The notes under the pieces are model-generated. The model worked only from the letters and a program-made list of their open reading frames with translations, was not told the origin of the DNA and did not search any database. Positions 14,822 through 42,200 of a stretch of 64,000 bases of DNA are shown here, in pieces. Location of the stretch: assembly GCA_964187785.1 (NCBI GenBank), contig OZ076414.1, positions 72,354,001 through 72,418,000 of the forward strand, in the 5' to 3' direction. How positions within the stretch are numbered: position 1 is the first letter of the stretch; each line of letters opens with the position of its first letter. The stretch comes from Amphiscolops sp. MND2022. Taxonomy: Eukaryota. Position numbers and translations under genes: made by a program.

Positions 14822-16411
14822 AATAGCCCTGAATTAGCAAAAATAGTTTGGTTTTGAGCTTCTAAAATCAGTGAAGAAAACCCGCTTTTTTAGAGAGCAG
14901 TTTTGTTCAAACCATAACAAAAAACTTGTCCTTTCCAAGGACGGAAATGTACATTGGAATAAAAGGTTTCCTCTATGTGAGAATATGAGTGTCTGAAAAT
15001 TGACCATGAGGAACTGTCAGTCTAAAATGTTCAATCCAAATAAATAGCCTTTATCTCTAGTGAATTTCTATCGAAAGTGAAGCAACAACGAACTTGAAGT
15101 TTCAAGAAGTTGGTAAGCAGCTAGCTTTCAAAACGGGGATTTTTATCAGATCAATTCAGGATTTGTAATTTCACTTCCAGGAAAAGGAACACACTGGGAT
15201 ATGCTTACAAATTAGTTTTATTCCGATTCATGAGTATGCCCTCCTCGATAATCCATTCTTAGTCAAAATCGAATCTGAAAATGGAAAGTGTATTTACCCT
15301 AAATCCTCAGTGTGCTTCTTACTGTGTTTAATTTCTACCTTCTTCCGACTAGAGAGAATATTTCGTGACTTTGTTTCAAAAATGCAGTTTTGAATTTGTA
15401 TTGTGTAAAGGTTCCTTTGGGTTTAGGAAAATTAGCTTTCAGTGATTCTTACTCAGTTGTGTTTAGGAGTTAGCTTGCGACTATGCCTTCCTAAACCTTT
15501 ACAAAAGTTGTCTCTAGGTCTTCCGAGTTCGCAGGAAGGACTTCGTTTCGAGAGAATTTAATTTTATGAAAAGAATTTGAATTAGTTTGAGTATTATATT
15601 CAACAATGTTCGTTTTTACACAATACGCAAGAATATAATACAAGCAGAACAATATGATCATCCAAACTGATACAAATATCCAATGAACAAAGTCAGAATT
15701 GTTTAACATTTACCAAATAAATACATCAATGGATTAAGGTAGCAATATTCAGGTAGGTCGTTTAAATACTATAAAAACTTGAATTTCGGAGTCCTTATAC
15801 GTCCAACAATTTGTTAGGACGAAGAGTATGGAATTTTTGGTGTGTTCAGACCTTGTAATGTCTCTTAGTTTTCTCAACAAAATAGTGAGATTTGTTAAGT
15901 CTTTTGACAACGGTGTGACAAGCTTGTCAGGAGTTTTAGCTTATAAGCTGAAGAGTTTAAATATTAGGTTTTAGCTTATATGACAAGCAATAGCTAAGTC
16001 GAAGACAAGTTTGTCTAACGTCAAGGCTTTGAAAGTCTTGCAAGTCCAAGTAAAGGTCTTATTAACCAGCGTTTAGCTAGGTTTTGTGTTTGGACAGGCT
16101 TGCCAAATGCTCGAACATAAGGTTCGGCACAGTACTTTAAGAGTTTAACTCATGTGACTAGCAGGGGCTAATTCGAAAAGAGAATTTAAGAGATTACGTG
16201 CATTTTAATTTCAACTTTAATTTAGTTATGTTAACTTTGACTAGGATTTGCTGACTCTTGACGCGATAACGTGCTTTGGAGATAAGATAAGTCTCAATCG
16301 AGAAGCTGGATTTTTGGAGCGTTTAGCTCAAGATAGAATTCCCTATGATTGCATAGGAGAATCTTGTTGGTTAACTTTCTGTTCAGTCGATTGACTGCGA
16401 AGTTTCTGTCA
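14822..16411 (-). repeat. Long LTR-like repeat, piece A
   Basis: Aligns with 33340..~35090. Its right ~680 bp (15733-16411) also appear, apparently identical, at 26082-26762. Confidence 0.9.
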
Positions 16412-18031: not shown

Positions 18032-18194
18032 GTAGAAATTGTCACGAATTAAGTTATTGTCACTTCTGGACTGAAGAAGAGCCAAGTTATTTTATTCGTA
18101 ATGAGCTACAGACTACTGAATAGAAAGATATATAGAAAGATACGAAGCACGTGCGTGTACAATTCCCGCAAAAATATCTACGTGAACTATTCAT

Positions 18195-21100: not shown

Positions 21101-24100
21101 AACGATAGATCGTGGGTGGGCTCCTAGTGTTTCGATTGCACGACCTCTTGGGTCGCTGTCACCAAAACTGGCTTAGAGACAATTTTTTTTTGATCGTAAA
21201 ATATACGTGAAATCATAAAAGCAAAAATAGAAACGATAGATCGTGGGTGGGCTCCTAGTGTTTCGATTGCACGACCTCTTGGGTCGCTGTCACAAAAACT
21301 GGCTTAGAGACAAATTTTTTTTTGATCGTAAAATATACGTGAAATCATAAAAGCAAAAATAGAAACGATAGATCGTGGGTGGGCTCCTAGTGTTTCGATT
21401 GCACGACCTCTTGGGTCGCTGTCACCAAAACTGGCTTAGAGACAAATTTTTTTGATCGTTAAATATACGTGAAATCATAAAAGCAAAAATAGAAACGATA
21501 GATCGTGGGTGGGCTCCTAGTGTTTCGATTGCACGACCTCTTGGGTCGCTGTCACAAAAACTGGCTTAGAGACAAATTTTTTTGATCGTTAAATATACGT
21601 GAAATCATAAAAGCAAAAATAGAAACGATAGATCGTGGGTGGGCTCCTAGTGTTTCGATTGCACGACCTCTTGGGTCGCTGTCACAAAAACTGGCTTAGA
21701 GACAAATTTTTTTGATCGTAAAATATACGTGAAATCATAAAAGCAAAAATAGAAACGATAGATCGTGGGTGGGCTCCTAGTGTTTCGATTGCACGACCTC
21801 TTGGGTCGCTGTCACCAAAACTGGCTTAGAGACAAATTTTTTTTTGATCGTAAAATATACGTGAAATCATAAAAGCAAAAATAGAAACGATAGATCGTGG
21901 GTGGGCTCCTAGTGTTTCGATTGCACGACCTCTTGGGTCGCTGTCACAAAAACTGGCTTAGAGACAAATTTTTTTGATCGTAAAATATACGTGAAATCAT
22001 AAAAGCAAAAATAGAAACGATAGATCGTGGGTGGGCTCCTAGTGTTTCGATTGCACGACCTCTTGGGTCGCTGTCACCAAAACTGGCTTAGAGACAAATT
22101 TTTTTTTGATCGTAAAATATACGTGAAATCATAAAAGCAAAAATAGAAACGATAGATCGTGGGTGGGCTCCTAGTGTTTCGATTGCACGACCTCTTGGGT
22201 CGCTGTCACAAAAACTGGCTTAGAGACAAATTTTTTTGATCGTAAAATATACGTGAAATCATAAAAGCAAAAATAGAAACGATAGATCGTGGGTGGGCTC
22301 CTAGTGTTTCGATTGCACGACCTCTTGGGTCGCTGTCACCAAAACTGGCTTAGAGACAAATTTTTTTTTGATCGTAAAATATACGTGAAATCATAAAAGC
22401 AAAAATAGAAACGATAGATCGTGGGTGGGCTCCTAGTGTTTCGATTGCACGACCTCTTGGGTCGCTGTCACAAAAACTGGCTTAGAGACAAATTTTTTTT
22501 TGATCGTAAAATATACGTGAAATCATAAAAGCAAAAATAGAAACGATAGATCGTGGGTGGGCTCCTAGTGTTTCGATTGCACGACCTCTTGGGTCGCTGT
22601 CACCAAAACTGGCTTAGAGACAAATTTTTTTGATCGTTAAATATACGTGAAATCATAAAAGCAAAAATAGAAACGATAGATCGTGGGTGGGCTCCTAGTG
22701 TTTCGATTGCACGACCTCTTGGGTCGCTGTCACAAAAACTGGCTTAGAGACAAATTTTTTTGATCGTTAAATATACGTGAAATCATAAAAGCAAAAATAG
22801 AAACGATAGATCGTGGGTGGGCTCCTAGTGTTTCGATTGCACGACCTCTTGGGTCGCTGTCACAAAAACTGGCTTAGAGACAAATTTTTTTGATCGTAAA
22901 ATATACGTGAAATCATAAAAGCAAAAATAGAAACGATAGATCGTGGGTGGGCTCCTAGTGTTTCGATTGCACGACCTCTTGGGTCGCTGTCACCAAAACT
23001 GGCTTAGAGACAAATTTTTTTTTGATCGTAAAATATACGTGAAATCATAAAAGCAAAAATAGAAACGATAGATCGTGGGTGGGCTCCTAGTGTTTCGATT
23101 GCACGACCTCTTGGGTCGCTGTCACCAAAACTGGCTTAGAGACAAATTTTTTTTGATCGTAAAATATACGTGAAATCATAAAAGCAAAAATAGAAACGAT
23201 AGATCGTGGGTGGGCTCCTAGTGTTTCGATTGCACGACCTCTTGGGTCGCTGTCACAAAAACTGGCTTAGAGACAAATTTTTTTTGATCGTAAAATATAC
23301 GTGAAATCATAAAAGCAAAAATAGAAACGATAGATCGTGGGTGGGCTCCTAGTGTTTCGATTGCACGACCTCTTGGGTCGCTGTCACCAAAACTGGCTTA
23401 GAGACAAATTTTTTTTTGATCGTAAAATATACGTGAAATCATAAAAGCAAAAATAGAAACGATAGATCGTGGGTGGGCTCCTAGTGTTTCGATTGCACGA
23501 CCTCTTGGGTCGCTGTCACCAAAACTGGCTTAGAGACAAATTTTTTTTTGATCGTAAAATATACGTGAAATCATAAAAGCAAAAATAGAAACGATAGATC
23601 GTGGGTGGGCTCCTAGTGTTTCGATTGCACGACCTCTTGGGTCGCTGTCACAAAAACTGGCTTAGAGACAAATTTTTTTTTGATCGTAAAATATACGTGA
23701 AATCATAAAAGCAAAAATAGAAACGATAGATCGTGGGTGGGCTCCTAGTGTTTCGATTGCACGACCTCTTGGGTCGCTGTCACCAAAACTGGCTTAGAGA
23801 CAAATTTTTTTTTGATCGTAAAATATACGTGAAATCATAAAAGCAAAAATAGAAACGATAGATCGTGGGTGGGCTCCTAGTGTTTCGATTGCACGACCTC
23901 TTGGGTCGCTGTCACAAAAACTGGCTTAGAGACAATTTTTTTTTGATCGTAAAATATACGTGAAATCATAAAAGCAAAAATAGAAACGATAGATCGTGGG
24001 TGGGCTCCTAGTGTTTCGATTGCACGACCTCTTGGGTCGCTGTCACAAAAACTGGCTTAGAGACAAATTTTTTTGATCGTAAAATATACGTGAAATCATA

Positions 24101-25300
24101 AAAGCAAAAATAGAAACGATAGATCGTGGGTGGGCTCCTAGTGTTTCGATTGCACGACCTCTTGGGTCGCTGTCACAAAAACTGGCTTAGAGACAAATTT
24201 TTTTGATCGTAAAATATACGTGAAATCATAAAAGCAAAAATAGAAACGATAGATCGTGGGTGGGCTCCTAGTGTTTCGATTGCACGACCTCTTGGGTCGC
24301 TGTCACAAAAACTGGCTTAGAGACAAATTTTTTTGATCGTAAAATATACGTGAAATCATAAAAGCAAAAATAGAAACGATAGATCGTGGGTGGGCTCCTA
24401 GTGTTTCGATTGCACGACCTCTTGGGTCGCTGTCACAAAAACTGGCTTAGAGACAAATTTTTTTGATCGTAAAATATACGTGAAATCATAAAAGCAAAAA
24501 TAGAAACGATAGATCGTGGGTGGGCTCCTAGTGTTTCGATTGCACGACCTCTTGGGTCGCTGTCACAAAAACTGGCTTAGAGACAAATTTTTTTGATCGT
24601 AAAATATACGTGAAATCATAAAAGCAAAAATAGAAACGATAGATCGTGGGTGGGCTCCTAGTGTTTCGATTGCACGACCTCTTGGGTCGCTGTCACAAAA
24701 ACTGGCTTAGAGACAAATTTTTTTGATCGTAAAATATACGTGAAATCATAAAAGCAAAAATAGAAACGATAGATCGTGGGTGGGCTCCTAGTGTTTCGAT
24801 TGCACGACCTCTTGGGTCGCTGTCACAAAAACTGGCTTAGAGACAAATTTTTTTTTGATCGTAAAATATACGTGAAATCATAAAAGCAAAAATAGAAACG
24901 ATAGATCGTGGGTGGGCTCCTAGTGTTTCGATTGCACGACCTCTTGGGTCGCTGTCACAAAAACTGGCTTAGAGACAATTTTTTTGATCGTAAAATATAC
25001 GTGAAATCATAAAAGCAAAAATAGAAACGATAGATCGTGGGTGGGCTCCTAGTGTTTCGATTGCACGACCTCTTGGGTCGCTGTCACAAAAACTGGCTTA
25101 GAGACAAATTTTTTTGATCGTAAAATATACGTGAAATCATAAAAGCAAAAATAGAAACGATAGATCGTGGGTGGGCTCCTAGTGTTTCGATTGCACGACC
25201 TCTTGGGTCGCTGTCACAAAAACTGGCTTAGAGACAAATTTTTTTGATCGTAAAATATACGTGAAATCATAAAAGCAAAAATAGAAACGATAGATCGTGG
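18195..25300. repeat. 130-bp satellite, ~54 tandem copies
   Basis: Monomer AAATATACGTGAAATCATAAAAGCAAAAATAGAAACGATAGATCGTGGGTGGGCTCCTAGTGTTTCGATTGCACGACCTCTTGGGTCGCTGTCACAAAAACTGGCTTAGAGACAAATTTTTTTGATCGT; variation limited to a few SNP sites and T-run length. Confidence 0.98.
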
Positions 25301-26081
25301 ATTTTCGGAGTTTTGCAACCAAATTATTATTTTCGGAGTTTTGCAACCAAATTATTATTTTCGGAGTTTTGAATAGCAATCCTATGGGAGATGTATAGAA
25401 AGATACGATTAACAATTCCCGCAAAAATATCTACGTGAACTATTCAGGTTCACACAAGGTTCACACAGGTTTACACAAATTTACAACAGATAAATTAGAA
25501 TGGTACTCCGAATATGATTCTATTGAAAATGTCTAATGCCTTTATTTGCTTTCTTTTGTTATGCATGCCTCCTTGCAACTGTTTAAAAAATCATTGGAAA
25601 ATCGCCATTTTCGACGGGACCTATTTAAATAGTACCAAATTGTGAGCAAAACTAAATGAACATCACAAAATCCGACCCCTCGAAAAAGTCACTTTTTAGC
25701 AAAAAAAGGCTAAGTATAAACAACAGTGAACATTCAAGACCAGCGGTTGGCTACATGAACTGTTGGATAGCAACTTACCTTGGATTCTGAAGATTGAAGT
25801 TCGAATTGTAATAGAATTTGTAAGACTAGATTGGAAAGAGCAAAGTTATAAGAGCAAAGTTATATGCGTGCGACTGATATTCAGTAACGTAAAGACCCAT
25901 ATGGCAAGTTTACCTGTTGCTGCACCAAAACTCCAAACGTCTTAGCCAATGAGAAGGTAGCGTCTTCTTAATAGAAGTAAAACTCGACGAACAGCTGTCT
26001 TGAAGTCTGCGATGATTTCTTCTCTAAAAGTCTCGTACTTGCTGTGGTAAAGTCCGTCTGCTTCCAAGGAAACTATTTCAA

Positions 26082-27539
26082 GGATTAAGGTAGCAATATT
26101 CAGGTAGGTCGTTTAAATACTATAAAAACTTGAATTTCGGAGTCCTTATACGTCCAACAATTTGTTAGGACGAAGAGTATGGAATTTTTGGTGTGTTCAG
26201 ACCTTGTAATGTCTCTTAGTTTTCTCAACAAAATAGTGAGATTTGTTAAGTCTTTTGACAACGGTGTGACAAGCTTGTCAGGAGTTTTAGCTTATAAGCT
26301 GAAGAGTTTAAATATTAGGTTTTAGCTTATATGACAAGCAATAGCTAAGTCGAAGACAAGTTTGTCTAACGTCAAGGCTTTGAAAGTCTTGCAAGTCCAA
26401 GTAAAGGTCTTATTAACCAGCGTTTAGCTAGGTTTTGTGTTTGGACAGGCTTGCCAAATGCTCGAACATAAGGTTCGGCACAGTACTTTAAGAGTTTAAC
26501 TCATGTGACTAGCAGGGGCTAATTCGAAAAGAGAATTTAAGAGATTACGTGCATTTTAATTTCAACTTTAATTTAGTTATGTTAACTTTGACTAGGATTT
26601 GCTGACTCTTGACGCGATAACGTGCTTTGGAGATAAGATAAGTCTCAATCGAGAAGCTGGATTTTTGGAGCGTTTAGCTCAAGATAGAATTCCCTATGAT
26701 TGCATAGGAGAATCTTGTTGGTTAACTTTCTGTTCAGTCGATTGACTGCGAAGTTTCTGTCACGACGACAAGAATCAAGAAATTTTGCCTTGTAAAGTTT
26801 GTTGACTTACCTGAATTGTGAAGTGAGTGAAGTTTTGGAGATTCTTTGATTTTTGAGGAAAGAGTTACGGATTGGATTTTTGTTTAGGAGGTGAACAACA
26901 GTGAGAAGCGTATGATCGTCTTAGAAATGTTGGCCCTTTTATATAAATCAGAAAGCACGTGCAACGAATCACTTCGATAGGTGCATTTCATTGGGTCCGA
27001 ACATATAACGTCACATTCTCGGTCCTTACTCGGAAATAACTTCGGGACCAGGCACGGCCGAGTACAAGTCGGCAAAGATTGCATCAGCTAGTCATTTAAC
27101 TCGGCTAGCCGAGTTGGCTGACGCAACTTTTGTTTATATCAGGGGAATTAGTCCTCTCAAGTGGGGACTTTGGTCTCGCTTGAATAATCTTTTGTTCTCA
27201 AATTGAGAAGCTCCGGCCGCACAAGTGGCGCCTATTCTTGTCTTCTCAAAGATATTTGCTTGCACAAGTGGCGTCGCATTGTCTTTTTCGAAGAGGATAA
27301 AAGAATTATTTGCACAAGTGGCAAGCGTTTCTTTTGTAGAGGGGAATTTGTTCTTTCAAGTGACGCGCAGTTGTGAACCTGTTTACTTCTAAAATTCTTT
27401 CAAGCGTGCTTTGAAAATTGAAAGAATGCGGAAAATAGTTTACGGAAAAGGAATAAATATATTCTAGCTTCGTTGAAATAGTTTTATATAGATGTTTTAA
27501 CAATAATAAACTGAGGAAAAAGATGTGTTAAACACAACA
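26082..27539 (-). repeat. Long LTR-like repeat, piece B (starts TGTTGTG on the minus strand)
   Basis: Aligns with 34254..35881. The right boundary (..AACACAACA) is shared with copy C and reads TGTTGTGTT on the minus strand. Confidence 0.9.
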
Positions 27540-28310
27540 ACTCACCCGGGGTTTTAGAATGGTTAAGTTGAAAGGGGCGATACAGGGTGTTTATGACATT
27601 TACTTCGAAGAATATGGAATCGTTTTTCAGCCAAGGGTTTTCAGAGTTCATGAGTTTGTCAAGAGGGATGAAACACAAGATGGTGACTGCTGTATTGCTG
27701 GATGTAGGTATGGGTTTTTTGAAGCACTCACTGTTGTTGTTGTTGTTTGTCACAATAAGCTCCTTGTACGGTTTGGATGTGTTTTCCTGGCCGAGGTGTA
27801 TCTGGATTACGCCTTGAAAAGGCCAAGTGAGGATCTCGTCATAGGGCCCGGGACACACGGCCAAGCACATTGAAATGTATTTTCCTTTAGCAGTGTCGAC
27901 TCCAAAAGGGTAGGCTCGTAGGTGAAAAGTGTAGCCAAAGGGTTGCGATAAGAAAATGGGGCTACAAACGTCTTTCAGGCTATTATGGTCACAATAGGGT
28001 GCTCTTACATGAGACACTTTTCTCGTATTTTTCGGCATTTCGGAATATCTGTAAATTGGTCGAGTCTCCAAATGATTCTGTATAAGTTCCAATCCCGAGG
28101 AATTGACCTTTTTTCAATACGTAGGATACGCATTTCAAGTGCGTCGAGTCTTTTGCTCACCTCGTGTATGCGGTCCGGATCTAATGATTCATCTGTTTAA
28201 GGGGTGATGTTTAAGTTCTGTCGAAGTAGAAGTAGCTTGTTCTTTAGGGACTCTGTCAGGGATCGTTCATCTTCTAGTTGTTCGATGATGGTAGATGAGC
28301 TTGAATTCAT
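27484..28310 (-). pseudogene. TRAF-like protein (coiled coil + MATH/TRAF-C domain), disrupted
   Basis: YRIIWRLDQF (MATH strand 1), SPIFLSQPFGYTFHLRAYPFG, GKYISMCLAV, GPYDEILTWPFQG, FKKP, CFIPLDKL, WLKNDSIFFEV are typical TRAF-C motifs. Upstream coiled coil SKRLDALEMRILRIEK. TAA at 28199-28197 and a frameshift near 28050. The ORF runs into repeat B. Confidence 0.85.
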
Positions 28311-28599
28311 CTTGAGTGGAGATTCTGAAAGATACTAGAAATAGCTTTAAATGAATGCTGAAATGCCTCTAAGGGGCACCACAATTCGTTGATAGCCTAG
28401 AATGGGATCTTCTAGTGTGAATTTGGATCGCAGAAGACGATATGCCACTGGTTATACTCGCGTTTCAAAAGATAATTTATGTCGAGCTGAAATCGGGGAT
28501 TTCTAGTGAAGGAATATTTGTTGGCAGCTTCTTCGTTCTTTCGTTGTCGGCATAGTGATTCTTGAATACAAAAAGCAGTCTTTTGTTTTTTTAATGAGA

Positions 28600-30935
28600 A
28601 TGTTTAATAGGCGATGGATGAGGTCGTTTGGATGGTAATGGGATTAATTTCAGGCTGATCGGTGGAGTAGCTGTTTTGACAACACCTTCAGCTATTGTTT
28701 CAGTTGGGAGGAAGTCGAAATCTGATGGGGAAAGCAGGGGAAGACTAATCAAGTCGGCGTTGTTGGGTTTTGGTTCACTGGCTAGTGACTCTTATTTCTT
28801 CTGCCACTGATTTTTCGCTTTGCATGTTCTGGGTAATGAACACAAAAGCATAAAAGTACAGTTATACTGGTGAAACAGTATGGATAGTTGATGTAGGGTG
28901 TCTAGTTATGGCAGGGTAAATGTGCTCAAGAGTTTCGTGCTCATGTAGTTTTTATCAGGAGTAGTTGAAGTCATTTGGGAACTTGATTAAGTGTTGGTAT
29001 CATCGAAACTGAACAAATTGTAGGTTGCTGAGAGCAGTATTTTACCAATACCCCAAGAAGCTCCTGTTACTCGTTGTAGTTCAAATGAGCGGAATGTTAT
29101 GACAATCACATTAACCAAAATCTTAATAAGGAATCCTGCGAACCATTGTCCCAATTTGCTAAACCAGTATTCGATGATACCAAAAGTGCTGATGAACTGT
29201 TTCTGGCGATATCATGTTGTCCACGTAGAAGTCTGTACGTGGTGCATAATAACCAAATTCATCTGGACCTTTATTGGAGGCTGAAGGTATAATGAGTTCC
29301 CGTGAAAACTTTTGTAAAGCATTTCTAGATGCTGCGCTGATCAAAATATTGTCCCAAAAATCACTGAGTTGTCCTTTTGTATACATTCCAGCATCCTGAG
29401 ATTCATCGAAGGGATCCTTGGTAAAGGGAGATATTTTTTTGGGCCAAAGATGGCAGGTCTGTCTCTGTGTGTAGGTTCTGGGTTTAACGAAAACCAGGAA
29501 TCTTTGTCTTGCGTATCCAGTTGGAAAAGATTTTTGATTCTATACGTGCAATTTTGAGTATTTGCATTAGGATAAGTTTGTCGGGTGATGGAATCTACGA
29601 ATTGAATTTGTCCTCTGTAGAAGATGGGTTTTTTGTCATAACAATTACTGATGACATGAAGGGGTGATGATATTAAAGGACAAGAGTAGAGCCAAGCAAG
29701 ACTGCCATCAGTTTCAAAGAACATAGATCTGTTTCCAGTTAGCATATATCCTGCAAGGCGTGGATTTTCCAAAGAGAGCATCAATATAGTGAGGATTGGA
29801 GTCCTTTCTTGCTCACATTGGTTTTTAAACATTTGAATCTCAGAAGATTGAAGCGCTCGGGTGCTTTGGAAGAATAGATAGTCCAATTTGGTGCCAACTT
29901 GCATACCGTAGTCCATATATAGCCAAGTATTTACATACTTGTCTTCAAGTGTGGCGTCTCTGTTGTATACGTAAAGTCCAGGGTTCCCAGAATTGTCTGT
30001 GGAGTATTGGAGGGTATAGGATCCTCTTGTAATTCCCATTTTTCTTCCAGAAGCCATGTCAAATCCGCCAGTGTTTTACAATGTACATGGACTCGTAGCT
30101 TGTTGGGTAAACATCGTTAGGTGTATTACAGAATTTCTGGGGTAGTTCTTCACTTCGAACAAGAATTTTGAAGTGGAGCCTTTCGTACTCACCATGTGAT
30201 ATCGATGTTCACTTCTACTCATGTTCACATGTTCTTCCTTCAAAACTGAGACTACGCAATTATCTGGGTGGTCCCATATATAAGCATAGGGATCTAAGGA
30301 CGTGCTTTGGCAACCCATATCATCGAGTTTGCATGGAAGGGGATTCCCGTTTACATTATGAACTGTTGCGTCTCTTAGTTTAACTGGTAGATTCGCTTCT
30401 TGGATGTGGCTTTCAAAAGTGTCTTTAGTCATCCAAGACCTTCCACTACAATGGTTTCTATATTCTTCGCTTTTTCCCGTTAGTGTAGGATTGAATGAGT
30501 TTTGTCCCTTTTTGAACTGGACCATGTGGTCTAGTATTTGTGTTTTCCTTCTCGTGCTCTTCTGGATTGTTCTATACTCAGGTCGATATCACTTGCGATT
30601 GTATTTTGTTCGGCGTCTATACTCGCATGGCCGTGATGTCACCGATGCCACTTGAATCTACTGTGCTTTAGGCGGCACATAGTGGCGTTAAGTTCTGTTC
30701 GTAAGTGCTTCGTGTAGACAGTCATTATAGCTGGGTTGATTTCATGTTTTCTGGGGAAACCTGGCATGGTCTCACTTGATTTAGTGCATATAATTTATTT
30801 TCAGTCATCTTTCCACAGTCATAATGTGATACACTGAGTCCCTGTGCATTGTCCAGATTGGGTTTGGGGAGACCATTGATCAGGGTGTAGCGCGTAACGA
30901 GTATTATGAAGAATTCACTGCACGTTTTGGATCTA
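28600..30935 (-). pseudogene. Viral envelope glycoprotein, chuvirus-G / class III fusion-protein type, frameshifted
   Basis: Fragments: hydrophobic leader, HYDCGKM..YALNQV, NATMCRLKH, CKLDDMGC...YIWDHPDNC, QCEQER..ILTILMLSLENPRLAGYMLTG..F.ETDG..AWLYSC, CYDKKPIFYRG...FVDSITRQTYP...C, and a TM segment FAGFLIKILVNVIVITF (~29170-29090). The Cys and motif order resembles chuviral and retroelement gB-like glycoproteins. Confidence 0.75.
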
Positions 30936-32216
30936 ATGGGGGGAATCTTAGGTATTGCTAAAACTTAGTTTTGTGAGGGGCAAATTTTTGAAAAAAAATC
31001 AAGAAGGGGAAAATCTTAACGGTAGGTTTGCTAACCGAGAGTTGATGGAGGCAAAGTTGACAACCAGTTGAAATCAAAGTTGATTTGATTGATGAAAAAC
31101 GTTTTCAAGGGCTGAAACAAGACAAATATTGTCTGATACCTTCAACCAAATCAAAAGCTGAATAGGAATTTGATAGATTGCTAACCAAAGGTGGATGTAG
31201 TCTGATTGACTACCGCTTTGAGCTGAGGTTGATTGGAGATTTTGTAGAAGTGTTTCAACAGCTGAAAGAAGACTTCTAAAGTCTTATATCCAATAAAAAT
31301 AGTAAAAATTCGGTAGCTTGCTAACCAAGAATTTGTGGTCTGAAAGGTCCAATATCTTATCAGAGGTGAAGTTGTTGACTATGAGGTTTGAAGCGAGGGT
31401 TGAAAAATAGGATCGTGAGAATTTATTTACTAAATGAAAGTTTTATTTCAAAATGAGATGGAAATTTCAAATCATAAAACTGGATAAGATCCTTGTACAA
31501 TTTGCTATATTTAGGGGAGGTGATACATTCGATGTCATAACACTGGTTAATTCTCCCAACACATCCATTTCAAATTTGGTGATGTGCCTTTCAGGTTTCT
31601 GCTTGTACGAAATGAGGGAAGCGGCTAGTGAAGCATATAGAAAATTGTCCTTGTAGATTCGCCTTTGATACTTTTTGTAGGGCAGGTCGTAACGTTCGAA
31701 ATGAATGCAAAGCTTGAATCCGTAAGTCCAAGTCCACCGAATGTAGGTGATCAGAAATTTTTTGTTGTTTTCACTAACGATGATTGTCCAGGGGCAATTG
31801 AAACTAAGTCCTTCGTATTTCTTTTCCCAGAGGGTATCCCAGTAAATAGTGGGATAGAGATAGCTTTGCGTGATTCTCGATTTTGCTTTTTTGCGGCAGT
31901 CCTTTTTGAGAATGGCCTGGGTTCATTAGAGGCGGTTGTTTTCTCTAAACAAATCTGTAGGTATGTCTCCCGCAAATGTCAAGGTGGAGAATATAGTCCC
32001 AGTAGACTGATTGTCGATCTACAAAAACAATGTCCCTTTTCGAGGTGATGTGGTGTTTTAGATAGATATAAATTTTATCTTGGTCCAACTCAGTTCTATA
32101 GATTCTGTAGAATTCGTTTTCGATTTTGATGTAAGTCAAGACAAACTGAAATGGTCACAAATCATATTCAAATAGCAGTAATTGAGAATAATAATCAGCG
32201 CTATTTTTGGTACAGT

Positions 32217-32858
32217 GATTTATCCACGGCGGAGATTGATAACTAAGAACGTTACCGTGCTGAAAAGTTATTTATCCACGGCAGAGATTGATAACTAAGA
32301 TCGTTACCGTGCTTGATTATGAAACGTTATTTACCCACGGCAGAGATTGATACTGTGCTGTAATCATTACCGTGCTCGGTTGAAAAATTTTTTACCCACG
32401 GCAGAGATTGATAACTAAGATCGTTACCGTGCTTGATTATGAAACGTTATTTACCCACGGCAGAGATTGATACTGTGATCGTTACCGTGCTCGATTTTTG
32501 TGAAAAGTTATTTACCCACGGCAGAGATTGATACTATGATGGTTACCGTGCTCGATTCTGTGAAAAGTAATTTACCCACGGCAGAGATTGATACTATGAT
32601 CGTTACCGTGCTCGATTTTGTGAAAAGTAATTTACCCACGGCAGAGATTGATACTATGATCGTTACCGTGCTCGATGTTTGTGAAAAGGTATTTACCCAC
32701 GGCAGAGATTGATACTATGATCGTTACCGTGCTCGATTTCTGTGAAAAGTTATTTACCCACTGCAGAGATTGATACTATGATCGTTACCGTGCTCGATTT
32801 TTGTGAAAAGTTATTTACCCACGGCAGAGATTGATACTATGATCGTTACCGTGCTCGA
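32217..32858. repeat. 60-61-bp tandem repeat, ~11 copies, each with an internal inverted pentamer
   Basis: Unit GAAAAGTTATTTACCCACGGCAGAGATTGATACTATGATCGTTACCGTGCTCGATTTTTGT with CACGG...CCGTG. Confidence 0.95.
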
Positions 32859-32959
32859 GAATTTCTAAAACGAATGACTACAAATTAGCTATCAGTTTGA
32901 GTTAAAATGACAACGAAGAGAAGAGAAAAAGAATTAGGTAAGAGACTTTTATTTACAAT

Positions 32960-33358
32960 TTAAAAGTCGTCCATCTCTTGCCAGAGCATCAGGGTTTCTA
33001 ATATATCTATATACATGTCTTTATAGTTCGAATTCCGGCAGGTAGTGTCCATTTGGTCCGTAATGGCGCTCAAGGCATCAATGTCCTGTTTAGAGAGTTG
33101 CGCTTCTGGTTTCCTTTTGTAAGTGACTAGAGCTGCTGTGAGGGACGTGTAAAAAAATGAACCGTGTTTTACCCATTTGTGGTATTTTTGCTTTGATCTG
33201 TAGTTATGAAATTTGACTTCTACATCAGCTGTTGGGTGCCAACTCCAACTTAGTTCTTCGATGATCATCGAGATTTCTTCTATTTCGGGCATGACATTCC
33301 AGGGGCAGCAGTTGAAATTGATTTTATTTTCCACGAAAAATTTGCCCTGAATTAGCAA
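32960..33358 (-). CDS. Hypothetical protein (~110-130 aa), 5' end abuts repeat C
   Basis: Protein-like composition, stop followed by AATAAA within ~12 nt (TAAATTGTAAATAAAA); no family recognised. Confidence 0.45.
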   Translation of the reverse strand: MLIQGKFFVENKINFNCCPWNVMPEIEEISMIIEELSWSWHPTADVEVKFHNYRSKQKYHKWVKHGSFFYTSLTAALVTYKRKPEAQLSKQDIDALSAITDQMDTTCRNSNYKDMYIDILETLMLWQEMDDF

Positions 33359-35881
33359 AAATGGTTTGGTTTTGAGCTTTTAAAAGTCAGTGAACAAAAA
33401 CACGTTTTTCTAGAGAACATTTTAGTTCAAGCCATAACACAAAACTTGTCCTTTGCAAAGACGGAAATGTACATTGGAATAAAAGGAGGTTTCCTCTATG
33501 TGAGAATATAAGTGTCTGAAAATTAACCATGAGGAACTGTCAATCTAAAATTTTCAATCCAAATAAATAGCCTTTATCTCTAGTGAATTTCTATCGAAAG
33601 TGAAGCAACAACGAACTTGAAGTTTCAAGAAGTTGGTAAGCAGCTAGCTTTCAAAACGGGAGTTTTTATCAGATCAATTCAGGATTTGTAATTTCACTTA
33701 CAGGAAAAGGAACACACTGGGGTATGCTTACAAATTAGTTTTTTTCCGATTCATATGAGTATGCCCTCCACGATAATCCATTCTTAGTCAAAATCGAATC
33801 TGAAAATGGAAAGTGTATCTTCCCTAAATCCTCAGTGTGCTTCTTACTGTGTTTAATTTCTACCTTCTTCCGACTGGAGAGAATATTTCGTGTCTATGTT
33901 TCAAAAATGCAGTGTTGAATTTGTATTGTGTAAAGGTTCGTTTGGGTTTAGGAAAATTAGATTTCGGTGATTCTTACTCAGTTGTGTTTAGGAGTAAGCT
34001 TGCGACTATGCCTTCCTAAACCTTTACAAAAGTTGTCTCTAGGTCTTCCGAGTTCGCAGGAAGGACTTCGTCTCGAGAGAATTTAATTTTATGAAAAGAA
34101 TTTGAATTAGTTTCAGTATTATTTTCAACAATGTTCGTTTTTACACTACGCAAGAATATAATGCAAGCAGAATAATATGATCATCCAAACTGATACAAAT
34201 ATCCAATCAATAATGTCAGAATTATTTAACATTTACCAGATAAATACATCAATGGATTAAGGTAGCAATACGCAATACTCAGGTAGGTCGTTTAAATACT
34301 ATAAAAACTTGAATTTCGGAGTCCTTATACGTCCAACAATTTGTTAGGACGAAAAGTATTGAATTTTTGGTCTGTTCAGACCTTGTAATGTCTCTTAGTT
34401 TCCTCAACAAAAAAGTGAGATTTGTTAAGTCTTTTGACAACGGTGTGACAAGCTTGTCAGGAGTTTTAGCTTATAAGAAGCTGAAGAGTTTAAATATTAG
34501 GTTTTAGCTTATATGACAAGCAATAGCTAAGTCGAAGACAAGTTTGTCTAACGTCAAGGCTTTGAAAGTCTTGCAAGTCCAAGTGAAGTAAAGGTCTTAT
34601 TAACCAGCGTTTAGCTAGGTTTTGTGTTTGGACAGGCTTGCCAAAGGCTCGAACATAAGGTTCGATGCAGTGCTTTAAGAGTTTAACCTATGGGACTAGC
34701 AGTGGCTAAGTCGAAAGGAGACAAGATTGTCTATCGTCAAGACTTTGAAGAAGTCTTGCAAGTCTAAGTAAAGTAAAGATCTTATTCAACCAGTGTATAG
34801 CTAAGTTGCGGTTTTGGGCAAGATTGTCAGAGGGCTCGAATTAAGATTCGGCTCAATACTTTAAATGATTACATGCATTTTAATTGAAACTATAATAATT
34901 TAGTTATAAGTTAACTTTGACTAGCATTTACTGAGTCTTGACGCGATACCGTGCTTTGGAGATAAGATAAGTCTCAATCGAGAAGCTGTATTTTTGGAGC
35001 GTTTAGCTCAAGATGGTTTTCCCTATGATTGCATAGGAGAGCCTTGTTGGTTAACTTTCTGTTCAGTCGATTGACTGCGAATTTGTTGTCACGACGACAA
35101 GAATAAAGAAAAAAGGAAGAAATTTTGACTTGTAAAGTTTGTTGACTTACCTGAAATGTGAAGTGAGTGAAGTTCTGGAGATTCTTTGATTTTTGAGGGA
35201 AGAGAGTTACGGATTGGATTTTTGTTTAGGAGGTGAAAAACAGTGAGAAGCGTATGATCGTCTTAGAAATGTTGGCCTTTTTATATAAATCAGAAAGCAC
35301 GTGCAACGAATCACATTGATAGGTGCATTTCATTGGGTCCGAACATATAACGTCACATTCTCGGTCCTTACTCGAAAATAACTTCGGGACCAGGCACGGC
35401 CGAGTACAAGTCGGCAAAGAATGCATCAGCTAGTCATTTAACTCGGCTAGCTGAGTTGGCTGACGCAACTTTTGTTTATATCAGGGGAATTAGTCCTCTC
35501 AAGTGGGGACTTTGGTCTCGCTTGAATAATCTTTTGTTCTCAAATTGAGAAGCTCCGGCCGCACAAGTGGCGCCTATTGTTCTCTTCTCAAAGATATTTG
35601 CTTGCACAAGTGGCGTCGCATTGTCTTTTTCAAAGAGGATAAAAGAATTATTTGCACAAGTGGCAAGCGTTTCTTTTGTAGAGGGGAATTTGTTCTTTCA
35701 AGTGACGCACAGTTGTGAATCTGTTTACTTCTAAAATTCTTTCAAGCGTGCCTTGAAAATTGAAAGAATGCGGAAAATAGTTTACGGAAAAGAAATAAAT
35801 ATATTCTAGCTTCGTTGAAATAGTTTTATATAGATGTTTTAACAACATTAAACTGAGGAAAAAGTTGTGTTAAACACAACA
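33340..35881 (-). repeat. Long LTR-like repeat, copy C (~2.5 kb)
   Basis: Covers both piece A and piece B. It carries many substitutions and small indels relative to them, plus an extra internal duplicated block (~34690-34860). Confidence 0.9.
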
Positions 35882-36200
35882 ATTGTCAAATTGTTTTTGT
35901 CGCAAAAAGGTACGACCAAATCTTTAGCCAATACGAAGTTTTTGAACTGACGGGCTCTTTAATGCGAATCCCAAAGTTTCCAGTGAATTTGTTGCAGCTG
36001 GTTTCTGAAGACAATCTTTTTCTCTAGTGAATGGATCTTATCTTTTTGTGACTAGAAATAGAAAAATTCTGTTTTTGGTTTCTAAACATCTAATTTGAAA
36101 GTAGTAGGAAGTACTATCCAAACCGCAGGGGTTGAAACTGGGTGAAGAAAAAATCATCCACTTTTGGTACTTTTCTCTACCTTCCAGAGAAGTGAATGAT

Positions 36201-39200
36201 GAGAGTAACAAGTTCATAATATTGTTTATAACATCATAGAAAAGAAAATCAACAGTATGAAGTTGCTCAAAATTTTCATGTTGAAAGCTGGCCAATGTTT
36301 TTCGGACTTTTGGTGAGCGGGCGATTGTTGGGGTGACTAGGCGTTTCATTATTCCAAATGACTGATGTATGTTATTACAAAATTTTGGAAAATTCAATGT
36401 TCAAACTATTTGCTCATACGTTTGAAAGTTAAACGTCTAGTTTTTTGAGGGCATCAAATCTTGCGAGAGTCAGGTTCACGATGGTGACTCTAGGAAACTT
36501 TCACGAGTCCTTTCCTGCCATTGACCCTGAAGGGTATTGTTCCAAAATGTGCGCAGCGACCAGCATCCTCTGAAAACCCGGAATCGTCTTCTGATGGCGT
36601 TTGCAGATGCCCTTCTCACCGCAGCTTCAGTTTTTCTTACTTTTTTGCCCAAAGCGAAACAGCCTTGTCTGTCGCCTATGGTAATGAAGACTCTATGTCG
36701 AACATGAGTCCTGTTGTCTCTAATTGTCACCATCGGAATTACCTTCGGAACCTCTTGTTGCACTGCTAAATAAAAATTTTACCCTGTTAGTCCTGTAGAT
36801 GTCCAGAGTTCACCAATTAAAATCATTTCCTTTTCGTTCAAAATACTTTTTCTTGATATGAATCTGGCTGATGACATCTAAACTGGTTCTATGTGACAGT
36901 GAGGGTCTACTTATGTTCGTGACTGAAGTTGAGACTTGACATTTTTGTCGTATTGGAAAAAATAACTGCCATGAAAGATCACAAGAACGGAGAAATCTGT
37001 TGCTGAAACGACTGTTAGTGATGTGAATCTTGTACAAGAATGTTTGTTTTTGTTGCCTGGGTCAAAACAATGATAGCATAGATGATATGCCTAGAACTTC
37101 GAAATATTTTGAGACCCCCATGAATTTTCAATGGGAAGTCTGAAATTTATGCGACAACTGAGAATTTAAAGAACAGTAGGCACTGACAAACCGAAAAATT
37201 ATGGGACCACACTAAAACATAAATACCGACACAGCTAAAAAGTATTACTCCTAGAAGATATGGGACATCTAAGCAACTACCCACCGACACCGCAAAACAG
37301 ACGAAGACTAGTATGACTCCTACCATATGGGTCACCTTGGCAGCTACCCACCGTATTGAGATTAACAATATTATAATACTGTTTACAACATCACAGAAAA
37401 GAGAATCAACAGTATGAATATTGCTCAAAATTTTCATGTTGAAAGCTGGCCAATGTATTTCGGACTTTTGGTAACGGGCGATTGCTGGGGTGACTAGGCT
37501 TTTCATATTTCCAAATGACTGATGTATGTTATTACAAAATTTTGGAAAATTCAATGTTCAAACTATTTGCTCATACGTTTGAAAGTTAAACGTCTAGTTT
37601 TTTCAGGGCATCAAATCTTGCGAGAGTCAGGTTCACGATGGTGACTCTAGGAAACTTTCACGAGTCCTTTCCTGCCATTAACCCTGAAGGGTATCGTTTC
37701 CAGAATGTGCGCAGCGACCAGCATCCTCTGAAAACCCGGAATCGTCTTCTGATGGCATTCGCAGATGCCCCTCTCACCGCAACTTGTTTTTCTTACTTTT
37801 TTGCCCAAAGCGAAACAGCCTTGTCTGTCGCCTATGGTAATGAAAACGCTATGTCGAACATGAGTTCCGTTGTCTTTAATTGCCACCATCGGAATTACCT
37901 TCGGAACCTCTTCTTGCACTGCTAAATAAAAAATTTACCCTGTTAGTCCTGTAGATGTCCAGAGTTCACCAATTAAAATCATTTCCTTTTCGTTTTTAAT
38001 ACTTTTTCATGATATGAATGTGGCTGATGACATCTTCTAAACTGGTTCTATGTGACAGTGAGGGTCTACTTATGTTCGTGACTGAGGTTGAGACTTGACA
38101 TTTTTGTCGTATTGGAAAAAATAACTGCCATGAAAGATGACAAGAACGGAGAAATCTGTTGCTGAAACGACTGTTAGTGATGTGAATCTTGTACAAGAAT
38201 GTTTGTTTTTGATGCCTGGGTCAAAACAATGATAGCATAGATGATATGCCTAGAACTTCGAAATCTTTTGAGACCCCCATGAATTTTTAATGGGAAGTCT
38301 GAAATTTATGCGACAACTGAGAATTTAAAGAACAGTAGGTTCAACAAACCGAAAAATTATGGGACCACCCTAAAACATAAATACCGACACTGCTAAAAAG
38401 TATTACTCCTAGAAAATATGGGACATCTAAGCAACTACCCACCGACTCCGCAAAACAGACGAAGACTAGTATGACTCCTACAATATGGGTCACCTTGGCA
38501 GCTACCCACCGTATTGAGATTAACAAGTTTATAATACTGTTTACAACATCACAGAAAAGAAAATAAACAGTATGAAGTTTGCTCAAAATTTTCATGTTGA
38601 AAGCTGGCCAATGTTTTTCGGACTTTTGGTGAGCGGGCGATTGTTGGGGCGACTAGGCTTTTCATATTTCCAAATGACTGATGTATGTTATTACAAAATT
38701 TTGGAAAATTCAATGTTCAAACTATTTTCTCATACGTTTGAAAGTTAAACGTCTAATTTTTTGAGGGCATCAAATCTTGCGAGAGTCAGGTTCACGATGG
38801 TGACTCTAGGAAACTTTCACGAATCCTTTCCTGCCATTGACCCTGAAGGGTATCGTTTCCAAAATGTGCGCAGCGACCAGCATCCTCTGAAAACCCGGAA
38901 TCGTCTTCTGATGGCATTCGCAGATGCCCCTCTCACCGCAACTTGTTTTTCTTACTATTTTGCCCAAAGCGAAACAGCCTTGTCTGTCGCCTATGGTAAT
39001 GAAAACGCTATGTCGAACATGAGTTCCGTTGTCTCTAATTGCCACCATCGGAATTACCTTCGGAACCTCTTCTTGCACTGCTAAATAAAAATTTTACCCT
39101 GTTAGTCCTGTAGATGTCCAGAGTTCAGCAATTAAAATCATTTCCTTTTCGTTTTTAATACTTTTTCATGATATGAATCTGGCTGATGACCTCTTCTAAA

Positions 39201-42200
39201 CTGGTTCTATGTGACAGTGAGGGTCTACTTATGTTCGTGACTGAAGTTGAGACTTGACATTTTTGTCGTATTGGAAAAAATAACTGCCATGAAAGATGAC
39301 AAGAACGGAGAAATCTGTTGCTGAAACGACTGTTAGTGATGTGAATCTTGTACAAGAATGTTTGTTTTTGTTGCCTGGGTCAAAACAATGATAGCATAGA
39401 TGATATGCCTAGAACTTCGAAATCTTTTAAGACCCCCATGAATTTTTAATGGGAAGTCTGAAACCTATGCGACAACTGAGAATTTAAAGAACAGTAGGTT
39501 CAACAAACCGAAAAATTATGGGACCACCCTAAAACATAAATACCGACACTGCTAAAAAGTATTACTCCTAGAAAATATGGGACATCTAAGCAACTACCCA
39601 CCGACACCGCAAAACAGACGAAGACTAGTATGACTCCTACAATATGGGTCACCTTGGCAGCTACCCACCGTATTGAGATTAACAAGTTTATAATACTGTT
39701 TACAACATCACAGAAAAGAAAATCAACAGTATGGAGTTTGCTCAAAATTTTCATGTTGAAAGCTGGCCAATGTTTTTCGGACTTTTGGTGAGCGGGCGAT
39801 TGTTGGGGCGACTAGGCTTTTCATATTTCCAAATGACTGATGTATGTTATTACAAAATTTTGGAAAATTCAATGTTCAAACTATTTTCTCATACGTTTGA
39901 AAGTTAAACGTCTAATTTTTTGAGGGCATCAAATCTTGCGAGAGTCAGGTTCACGATGGTGACTCTAGGAAACTTTCACGAGTCCTTTCCTGCCATTGAC
40001 CCTGAAGGGTATCGTTTCCAAAATGTGCGCAGCGACCAGCATCCTCTGAAAACCCGGAATCGTCTTCTGATGGCATTCGCAGATGCCCCTCTCACCGCAA
40101 CTTGTTTTTCTTACTATTTTGCCCAAAGCGAAACAGCCTTGTCTGTCGCCTATGGTAATGAAAACGCTATGTCGAACATGAGTTCCGTTGTCTCTAATTG
40201 CCACCATCGGAATTACCTTCGGAACCTCTTCTTGCACTGCTAAATAAAAATTTTACCCTGTTAGTCCTGTAGATGTCCAGAGTTCAGCAATTAAAATCAT
40301 TTCCTTTTCGTTTTTAATACTTTTTCATGATATGAATCTGGCTGATGACCTCTTCTAAACTGGTTCTATGTGACAGTGAGGGTCTACTTATGTTCGTGAC
40401 TGAAGTTGAGACTTGACATTTTTGTCGTATTGGAAAAAATAACTGCCATGAAAGATGACAAGAACGGAGAAATCTGTTGCTGAAACGACTGTTAGTGATG
40501 TGAATCTTGTACAAGAATGTTTGTTTTTGTTGCCTGGGTCAAAACAATGATAGCATAGATGATATGCCTAGAACTTCGAAATCTTTTAAGACCCCCATGA
40601 ATTTTTAATGGGAAGTCTGAAACCTATGCGACAACTGAGAATTTAAAGAACAGTAGGTTCAACAAACCGAAAAATTATGGGACCACCCTAAAACATAAAT
40701 ACCGACACTGCTAAAAAGTATTACTCCTAGAAAATATGGGACATCTAAGCAACTACCCACCGACACCGCAAAACAGACGAAGACTAGTATGACTCCTACA
40801 ATATGGGTCACCTTGGCAGCTACCCACCGTATTGAGATTAACAAGTTTATAATACTGTTTACAACATCACAGAAAAGAAAATCAACAGTATGGAGTTTGC
40901 TCAAAATTTTCATGTTGAAAGCTGGCCAATGTTTTTCGGACTTTTGGTGAGCGGGCGATTGTTGGGGCGACTAGGCTTTTCATATTTCCAAATGACTGAT
41001 GTATGTTATTACAAAATTTTGGAAAATTCAATGTTCAAACTATTTTCTCATACGTTTGAAAGTTAAACGTCTAATTTTTTGAGGGCATCAAATCTTGCGA
41101 GAGTCAGGTTCACGATGGTGACTCTAGGAAACTTTCACGAGTCCTTTCCTGCCATTGACTCTGAAGGGTATCGTTTCCAAAATGTGCGCAGCGACCAGCA
41201 TCCTCTGAAAACCCGGAATCGTCTTCTGATGGCATTCGCAGATGCCCCTCTCACCGCAACTTGTTTTTCTTACTATTTTGCCCAAAGCGAAACAGCCTTG
41301 TCTGTCGCCTATGGTAATGAAAACGCTATGTCGAACATGAGTTCCGTTGTCTCTAATTGCCACCATCGGAATTACCTTCGGAACCTCTTCTTGCACTGCT
41401 AAATAAAAATTTTACCCTGTTAGTCCTGTAGATGTCCAGAGTTCAGCAATTAAAATCATTTCCTTTTCGTTTTTAATACTTTTTCATGATATGAATCTGG
41501 CTGATGACATCTTCTAAACTGGTTCTATGTGACAGTGAGGGTCTACTTATGTTCGTGACTGAAGTTGAGACTTGACATTTTTGTCGTATTGGAAAAAATA
41601 ACTGCCATGAAAGATGACAAGAACGGAGAAATCTGTTGCTGAAACGACTGTTAGTGATGTGAATCTTGTACAAGAATGTTTGTTTTTGTTGCCTGGGTCA
41701 AAACAATGATAGCATAGATGATATGCCTAGAACTTCGAAATCTTTTGAGACCCCCATGAATTTTTAATGGGAAGTCTGAAATTTATTCGACAACTGAGAA
41801 ATTAAAGAACAGTAGGTTCAACAAACCGAAAAACTATGGGACCACCCTAAAACATAAATACCGACACTGCTAAAAAGTATTACTCCTAGAAAATATGGGA
41901 CATCTAAGCAACTACCCACCGACACCGCAAAACAGACTAGTATGACTCCTACAATATGGGTCACCTTGGCAGCTACCCACCGTATTGAGATTAACAAGTT
42001 TATAATACTGTTTACAACATCACAGAAAAGAAAATCAACAGTATGAAGTTTGCTCGAAGTTTCCATGTTAAAAGCTGGCCAATGTTTTTCGGACTTTCGG
42101 TGAGCGGGCGATTGTTGGGGTGACTAGGCTTTTCATATTTGCAAATGACCGATGGATGTTATTACAAAATTTTGGAAAATTCAATGTTCAAACTATTTGC

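Follow-up and report, generated by a model that had tools for sequence, protein, structure and literature searches.

A TRAF gene downstream of env in a family of Ty3/gypsy LTR retrotransposons

The copy in the window

The window, which is the whole 64-kb stretch of DNA analysed here, contains a damaged LTR element whose features are the following.

33929..35881, minus strand: whole LTR, TG...CA, 1953 bp, with an equal 4-bp target duplication at both ends
33334..33928, no strand: duplicated host flank of the insertion site, about 595 bp, outside the element, between the right LTR and the ORF3 remnant
32963..33329, minus strand: ORF3 remnant, a small accessory ORF, 5' end missing at the rearrangement junction
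32203..32858, minus strand: tandem array, about 10 repeats 51-61 bp long, each containing a two-stem motif of 34 nt
31468..31919, minus strand: ORF4, second small accessory ORF and paralogue of ORF3, broken close to its 3' end
28865..30955, minus strand: env, class III fusion glycoprotein (chuvirus G / herpes gB-like), Pfam PF24664, E 2e-13
28350..28825, minus strand: ORF6, acidic proline-rich ORF with a conserved C-terminal domain, between env and TRAF, broken in the window
27571..28310, minus strand: TRAF with coiled coil and TRAF-type MATH domain, PF21355, E 2e-21, in two frames
26078..27539, minus strand: first part of the 3' LTR, 86% like 33929-35881, with indels
16412-26077: 9.7-kb insertion that splits the 3' LTR and contains a 130-bp satellite (18194-25300)
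15404..16411, minus strand: last part of the 3' LTR (third LTR piece), ending in CA, followed by the same target duplication and the flank

An earlier note on this DNA had described long direct repeats enclosing co-oriented genes, and both are real: all genes between the repeats lie on the minus strand. The small ORF with a polyadenylation signal corresponds to the ORF3 remnant, which is followed by AATAAA at 32948-32953, and the array of units of about 60 bp is present with about 10 units of 61 bp at 32261-32858. The proposed glycoprotein and TRAF pseudogenes were recovered as well. Env is disrupted by stops and frame changes, and the open frame of the TRAF continues into the left LTR. ORF4, ORF6, the duplicated host flank of about 595 bp and the LTR piece at 15404-16411 had been overlooked.

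No match to gag or pol was found anywhere in the 64-kb stretch. The statement that the element carries neither gene therefore holds for the window copy, but not for the element as such, whose whole relatives have both. Since the right LTR is bordered by the target duplication at either end and then by duplicated host flank, gag and pol were lost by rearrangement. The second copy of this flank (14816-15403) differs from 33334..33928 by 5.4%, and 429 flank bases match over their whole length at just the two window sites, which are 2 of the 40 matches listed in the genome search. Over 685 aligned bases, the segment 15726-16411 shows 0 mismatches to 26078-26762. The window almost certainly holds a rearranged and decayed copy of an env-bearing Ty3/gypsy LTR retrotransposon family. 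A local duplication, comprising ORF3 to the LTR plus the flank, would have produced the present arrangement, and the first internal part would have been lost through recombination between LTRs or between alleles.

Alternatively, the window could contain a dedicated non-autonomous unit of LTR, env and TRAF without gag and pol, which is mobilised in trans. Four of 13 checked copies indeed keep at most 121 of 1821 pol residues, and in three of these four the 5' LTR is joined at or just past the primer site to the accessory region. However, the breakpoints of the copies lacking gag and pol are all different, and integrase or most of pol is present in 53 of the 59 copies of subfamily A (45 plus 8 more). 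Moreover, the LTR of the window copy at 33929..35881 is followed by host flank and not by a primer-binding site, none of which was found behind it. Such a unit is largely refuted and has very little probability left. An origin of the copies without gag and pol from spliced RNA was rejected as well, given the differing breakpoints and the lack of GT-AG at the one junction read (L004).

The family and its env gene

In whole copies the order is LTR, tRNA-Met primer site, gag, pol, small ORFs, hairpin array, env, ORF6, TRAF and LTR. Whole relatives, for which the earlier note had proposed to search, carry gag (PF03732, Retrotrans_gag) and a pol with reverse transcriptase (RT), RNase H, H2C2 and integrase core. 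In one of them gag is followed by protease, RT, RNase H and integrase, with DTGA at 3, YLDD at 693 and HHCC from about 1250. Its Pfam matches comprise Retrotrans_gag, RT_RNaseH_2, Integrase_H2C2 and SH3_Tf2-1, while none of the Pao-type families gave a match. Among solved structures the RT is nearest to Ty3 (E 2e-35). On these Pfam and RT results the backbone is Ty3/gypsy, and BEL/Pao was rejected.

The LTRs end in TG...CA, and a 4-bp target duplication was seen in 10 of the 11 copies in which both ends could be read (7 of 18 were unreadable). Four subfamilies (A, B, C and D) were sampled, which share an identical primer-binding site behind the 5' LTR; it is complementary to 11 genomic places, one of the four fetched being called as tRNA-Met(CAT). 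The family is young and has many copies. The LTR pairs are at least 99.8% alike in 6 of 10 A copies, pol is retained in most copies and near-identical LTRs occur in many.

The gap between pol and env measures about 4.6 kb and is filled by the small ORFs and the hairpin array. ORF3 (134-136 aa in whole copies) and ORF4 (154 aa) are paralogues without a Pfam match or a usable Atlas match, and their only 20 database relatives are all unnamed. A model of ORF4 from a whole copy (pLDDT 77) has four strands and three helices; no BFVD match was obtained at E<=0.001, and the best PDB match reached Z 4.5. On this model the fold is unplaced, and we do not claim that it is new. The 34-nt two-stem motif of the array is common to subfamilies A and C, and the array pattern was not found in the B or D loci. 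A single unit folds modestly better than its shuffles (z -0.95 to -1.8), and Rfam gave no match beyond one at E 0.26, which lies in the LTR. The array was also considered as a microRNA precursor, which was dropped as the stems are short. ORF6 has 153-169 aa in A and C; in B and D its frame is open, but a long ORF starting at an ATG is absent.

The env protein is 702-716 aa long in whole copies and matches PF24664 with E 9e-40 in a whole relative. According to hydropathy it carries a signal peptide and a C-terminal membrane anchor, and its model is consistent with a class III fusion fold. The best Foldseek matches are herpes gB (E 3e-12) and chuvirus G (E 9e-30), at low TM-scores of 0.15-0.26 and a model pTM of 0.33. 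Together with PF24664 this structure comparison agrees with the earlier assignment of env to the chuvirus G/gB type. In env D one match to a TRAF-binding motif occurs, which is at chance level.

The linkage of env and TRAF, which the earlier note had suggested to check at other loci, was found in all four subfamilies sampled. Of 150 env matches, 144 are followed by a TRAF at a distance of about 2 kb. Within 5 kb downstream it is present in all 59 env rows of subfamily A and in 85 of the 91 others, and each of the 49 A integrase rows has a TRAF match within 15 kb. In all four subfamilies the position after env and ORF6 is fixed. Two env-gypsy relatives from other sources (L071, L072), with env proteins 41-42% identical, have no MATH domain downstream of env, so that the wider clade does not need the TRAF. 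One relative encodes coiled-coil ORFs in the slot of the TRAF. Viral contigs gave 13 pattern matches, none of them related, and metagenomes 4 loci out of 144 pattern matches.

Origin, constraint and possible role of the TRAF

The possibility that the TRAF is a spliced host gene merely adjacent to the insertion is contradicted, as the TRAF is free of introns and lies within the element. In the host gene L043 two positions are occupied by GT-AG introns, and the element ORFs read across both uninterrupted; over 106 aa, the C-type TRAF shares 43% identity with the coiled-coil exon of L043, and it keeps a host-like N-terminal coiled coil. The proposed phylogeny against host TRAFs places the element TRAFs with a host non-canonical clade (support 100/98) in a 21-row tree, in which a RING or zinc finger is confirmed in 6 of the 10 outgroup rows and from which P0354, P0323 and other unplaced or long rows were omitted. 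In an earlier 44-row tree P0354 and P0323, taken as canonical unchecked, fell among the element TRAFs. The RING-TRAF of the genome (L042), whose MATH exons were not recovered, is absent from the trees, and P0286 has no match in this genome at E<=1e-40. The element TRAFs may share one origin, which is not rejected (p-AU 0.245). Since the TRAF groups with the host clade and lacks its introns, a spliced mRNA of the host is its likely source. A search of about 12 kb upstream of the L043 coiled-coil exon revealed no RING exon, and the donor clade may itself be RING-less. The element need therefore not have lost a RING by adaptation. The same host TRAF clade is also carried by a further mobile family, an unrelated foldback element.

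In whole A copies the TRAF has 250 aa. In each of A, B, C and D its TRAF-type MATH domain passes the Pfam cut-off, and an N-terminal RING and zinc fingers of the TRAF2-6 type are absent from the four element proteins scanned. The nearest solved structures are TRAF1, 5, 2 and 3, with TRAF1 (PDB 5H10, E 4e-13) at the top, and the alignment with TRAF1 extends across coil and MATH. The TRAFs of the other subfamilies are just 17-27% identical to those of A, and the frame is open across all four. In the A-type, the strand that pairs with receptor peptides in TRAF1/2 is altered; the B- and D-type TRAFs are very divergent.

Strong purifying selection acts on the element TRAF (dN/dS about 0.05). Between A variants dN/dS is 0.053 over 249 codons at a dS of 1.2, and within C it is 0.13. 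Among the A copies listed, 44 of 48 have no stop across TRAF residues 3-250. A TRAF that is merely carried along by a successful element could look intact in young copies simply through their youth. However, a dN/dS of 0.05 at dS above 1 contradicts this, as does a frame kept open in four subfamilies at such low identity, and a neutral passenger is extremely improbable.

The enveloped retroelement lineage with its own RING-less TRAF, as supposed in the earlier note, is thus borne out by linkage and lack of introns. For its role we favour an accessory protein which would compete or co-assemble with host TRAFs and thereby damp immune or cell-death signalling, the 3' genes possibly being read from subgenomic RNAs. 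RING-less TRAF1 is described to resemble dominant-negative TRAF2 and to form heterotrimers with TRAF2 (PMC6305416). The same source reports that TRAF1 also enhances TRAF2 signalling, and the RING-less state therefore leaves the sign of the effect unfixed. Also against a damping role are the altered strand of the A-type, the strong divergence of the B- and D-types, and the env-gypsy relatives with no MATH domain behind env. The element TRAF could instead raise signalling, like TRAF1 or the viral ORF111L, and switch on LTR transcription, host-cell survival or release. TRAF1/2 heterotrimers are better recruiters of cIAP than TRAF2 by itself (PMC6305416), ORF111L binds TRADD and induces apoptosis (PMC3352826), and a naturally RING-less donor clade would fit as well. 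Still, ORF111L has a RING (PMC3352826) and the element TRAFs have none, and we regard such a booster as unlikely.

In another reading, the trimeric coiled-coil and MATH protein would serve assembly or trafficking by holding on to the Env tail, ORF6 or Gag, and host signalling would be unaffected. The fixed slot after env and ORF6 in four subfamilies, the coiled-coil ORFs in the same slot of a relative, and the fast divergence from the host clade despite strong constraint inside the subfamilies are in line with such a scaffold. Against it, no canonical TRAF-binding motif was found in the C-terminal 90 residues of env A, B and C or in ORF6, the C-type retains its host-like coiled coil, and the same host TRAF clade is borne by the unrelated foldback family. 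We consider this reading rather improbable. For the whole chain of the favoured explanation, an env-bearing Ty3/gypsy family with a captured RING-less TRAF predicted to damp host signalling, we see about even chances.

Invertebrate env-bearing LTR elements are usually viewed as three-gene parasites which are controlled by small RNAs. That they carry a conserved TRAF of host origin suggests a further layer, in which the elements, like complex viruses, encounter receptor-driven immune or death signalling and manipulate it. Because the gene is small and dozens of young copies contain it, what it does to host signalling is open to direct test. More tentatively, and with less than even chances, the family might represent a 'complex' enveloped retroelement lineage, which took a TRAF from its host to modulate immunity or cell death, in the manner of large DNA viruses, and kept it through deep diversification, and whose duplicated small proteins of unmatched fold and hairpin array may form a Rev/RRE-like pair. 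The foldback element with the same TRAF clade would then hint that the TRAF pathway polices mobile elements in this animal.

Comparison with known systems

Ty3/gypsy elements with a gB-type env are already known as 'ancient errantiviruses' (Chary and Hayashi, eLife 2026, PMC13524379). The present family shares with the HSV/gB-type errantiviruses described there the gag-pol-env order, the Ty3/gypsy pol, the tRNA primer site, many near-identical copies and a gB-like env with signal peptide, C-terminal membrane anchor and a furin site that is not always present. It differs by the stretch of about 4.6 kb between pol and env and by two extra genes after env. The first pol-env filter of that survey was 1 kb, extended to 3-5 kb for some phyla. 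'TRAF' and 'MATH' are absent from its main text and, as domain names, from 7 supplements, and four short env motifs of the present clade were not found in this text and the supplements.

Anakin, a mosquito BEL/Pao element (Dezordi 2020, PMC7642597), likewise has a chuvirus-like glycoprotein within LTRs and recent activity; its backbone is Pao in contrast to Ty3/gypsy here, and its abstract does not mention a TRAF. Extra 3' genes in invertebrate LTR elements are shared with those of bdelloid rotifers (Rodriguez 2017, PMC5408684), where the abstract names env, esterase and exonuclease and no signalling adaptor, and with the Tor elements of Oikopleura (Henriet 2015, PMC4402516). Some Tor elements express env from an internal promoter (PMC4402516), which is a possible model for the 3' genes here.

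A virus-borne TRAF with coiled coil and MATH is found in ORF111L of the fish iridovirus ISKNV (PMC3352826). ISKNV is a large DNA virus and its TRAF has an N-terminal RING and a tested function. Mammalian TRAF1 (PMC6305416; PDB 5H10) is also a RING-less coiled-coil and MATH protein. It is, however, a host gene with one zinc finger, whereas in the element TRAF, as in its host clade, the first MATH strand is followed by an insertion, and the peptide-binding strand is altered. In the open-licence literature searched, no LTR element was reported to contain a TRAF.

An env-bearing LTR family with a TRAF gene

At least 150 matches to the env fragment of the window were found in the 1.07-Gb genome, and by their identity to the window env they fall into the subfamilies A (about 90%, including the window copy), B (66%), C (65%) and D (68%). 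Ten A copies and nine copies of B, C and D were read on both sides. Whole copies have the order LTR, primer site, gag (421-491 aa), pol (about 1820 aa), small ORFs, env (702-716 aa), acidic ORF (ORF6), an ORF of 250-334 aa, and LTR. The pol domains (protease motif, RT, RNase H, integrase) are arranged as in Ty3/gypsy, the closest solved structure to the RT is Ty3, and the primer site, which is identical across all four groups, corresponds to the 3' terminus of a tRNA-Met gene. In A the two LTRs of a copy are 94.8-100% identical, with 6 of 10 copies reaching at least 99.8%; in B, C and D the figure is 98.9-100%, and a 4-bp target duplication is present in 10 of the 11 copies with both ends read. 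The family has therefore copied itself recently.

The last ORF of all four subfamilies encodes a coiled coil and a TRAF-type MATH domain. The linkage of env and TRAF proposed in the earlier note recurs at other loci: matching of the coordinate lists places a TRAF match within 5 kb downstream of env in all 59 A rows and in at least 85 of the 91 non-A rows, hence in at least 144 of 150. The other six have no TRAF among the matches listed, which is not to be read as absence. A TRAF also lies within 15 kb of all 49 listed A integrase rows.

The env is assigned to PF24664 (Monjiviricetes fusion protein, E 9e-40). A model built on a 34-row alignment (pLDDT 64.5, pTM 0.33) matches herpes gB in the PDB (E 3e-12) and chuvirus glycoproteins in BFVD (E 9e-30, 17% identity). 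The global TM-scores are low, and therefore only the predicted fold class is claimed for what had been described as a chuvirus-type class III glycoprotein. A membrane anchor is present at the C-terminus of all four types, none of which contains an R-x-K/R-R furin motif.

Between A variants the pairwise Nei-Gojobori dN/dS is 0.053 for TRAF (249 codons, dS 1.2), 0.019 for env, 0.047 for gag, 0.07 for ORF3 and 0.13 for both ORF4 and ORF6. For TRAF it is 0.13 within C and 0.16 for B versus D, where dS is saturated. TRAF residues 3-250 are stop-free in 44 of the 48 listed A copies, and the complete ORF of 249-250 aa is present in 7 of 10 fully read ones.

The window copy and the small ORFs

The repeats, small ORF, polyA signal, array and the glycoprotein and TRAF remnants were found where they had been placed before, all on the minus strand. 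Both env and TRAF are disrupted by frame changes and stops. The description as an element without gag and pol is true of the window, in whose 64 kb neither has a match, but not of the family, whose whole copies carry both. Most A copies hold integrase or most of pol: integrase is listed upstream of 45 of 59 A env rows, and the remaining 14 are the window and 13 copies which were fetched. Eight of these hold at least 1630 of the 1821 pol residues, one holds 650 and four at most 121, with a different breakpoint in each of the four.

The right LTR of the window (33929-35881) is flanked on both sides by the same 4 bases. About 595 bp behind it are repeated at 14816-15403, behind the third LTR piece, and in a genome search the searched portion of this flank is whole only at these two sites. 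The flank copies diverge by 5.4% and the LTR parts by 2.7-4.4%, which is in line with a single old local duplication. Such a rearrangement would explain the lack of gag and pol in the window. Presumably later, a 9.7-kb insertion with an exact 686-bp duplication on its flanks split the 3' LTR (26078-27539 and 15404-16411). The following tandem repeats were observed:

18194-25300, 130-bp satellite within the insertion, 54 copies, 98% matches
36200-52134, on to about 55930, about 15 copies of a unit of about 1159 bp
5086-6137, 84-bp unit, 12.5 copies
L021:1840-2237, L037:7994-8832 and window 34503-34864, examples of repeats within LTRs

Within the LTRs of all subfamilies lie variable tandem repeats, of about 180-196 bp in A and about 86-88 bp in B and C; they account for the indels between the LTRs of the window.

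ORF3 is a paralogue of ORF4 (30-33% identity), and B, C and D contain two or three similar ORFs each. The fold was not placed: a structure model of ORF4 from a whole copy matched nothing in BFVD at E<=0.001 and reached at best Z 4.5 in the PDB. In a whole copy AATAAA signals follow both ORFs, hinting that the 3' part may have separate subgenomic RNAs; in some Tor elements env is driven by an internal promoter (PMC4402516). Each A copy has 4-12 occurrences of the array motif and each C copy 2-4. In 23 distinct, pattern-selected units pairing holds in 98.3% of cells, and at two pairs both partners have changed (4 cells), a result seen in 0 of 500 shuffles, but this covariation is suggestive only, because the hairpin structure was derived from the same sequences. 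A U-G pair speaks for the sense RNA, although a DNA dyad is still conceivable. In B and D, ORF6 is an open frame of 200-227 codons without a long ATG-started ORF, and to be translated it would require splicing, a frameshift or a start codon other than ATG:

L027:5590-6230 and L035:5585-6307, ORF6 open frames of B/D

Origin of the element TRAF

Besides a RING-bearing TRAF gene (L042), the genome holds two non-canonical TRAF genes, in neither of which a RING was found:

L043:4465-7858 (G000:C3:90.87 Mb), host TRAF gene with introns
L064:5630-7320 (G000:C3:25.70 Mb), host TRAF gene with introns

The only zf-TRAF match of the whole genome lies at the RING-bearing gene (L041/L042), whose introns contain other LTR elements. 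Like L043, the element TRAFs carry a YP(Y/F)G motif and an insertion that follows the first MATH strand; in the C type the resemblance extends to the N-terminal coiled coil of L043 (43% identity over 106 aa). A 21-row tree groups six element rows with the host L043, three similar database proteins and one row of a second mobile family against ten outgroup TRAFs (100/98); a single origin of the element rows is neither rejected nor established by it (p-AU 0.245).

According to the alternative raised earlier, the TRAF would be a spliced host gene merely adjacent to the insertion. The element ORFs, however, run uninterrupted across the positions where L043 and L064 have GT-AG introns, and this suggests that the TRAF was captured from a spliced mRNA. 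The roughly 12 kb upstream of the coiled-coil exon of L043 yielded no RING exon, and the donor may therefore already have been RING-less. Two database proteins of the short A-type build (P0003, P0224) have best matches of only 60% and 44% identity in this genome, which makes it likely that other genomes also hold TRAFs of this kind. Against a generality of the env and TRAF combination counts that no MATH was found downstream of env in two relatives from other sources (L071, L072). L072 contains coiled-coil ORFs with weak likeness to ORF6; in this gag-pol-env element two paralogous ones follow env in the slot of ORF6 and TRAF (9741-12095).

The second family is a dispersed repeat with some 25 rows or more, whose inverted arms measure at least 2.4 kb and are 98-99.6% identical to each other:

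L050:3578-9925 (G000:C1:103.77 Mb), second repeat; also L052, L054, L060, L062 and L069

Its unique spacer contains a 344-aa coiled-coil and MATH ORF of the same host TRAF clade. This ORF ends just past a GT at the last intron position of the host gene, suggesting a capture as DNA. Similarity to gag, pol or env was sought in this repeat and none was found. Close to one copy is a fragment of a protein-primed DNA polymerase B (L057).

Predicted role and known systems

A RING-less TRAF of coiled coil and MATH would most simply compete for receptor tails or enter host TRAF trimers. TRAF1 has been likened to a dominant-negative TRAF2, yet it is also credited with enhancing TRAF2 signalling (PMC6305416). 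Since both effects are described, we give the prediction that the element TRAF damps host signalling an even chance; that it boosts signalling is rather unlikely, and a role as scaffold is equally doubtful.

In the open-licence literature, with supplements covered for PMC13524379 only, no LTR element with a TRAF gene was found described, and it is this gene that seems new here. Already described are gypsy elements with gB-type env, which are widespread (PMC13524379), chuvirus-type env in Pao elements (PMC7642597), and a viral TRAF from an iridovirus, which bears a RING (PMC3352826), unlike the element TRAF.
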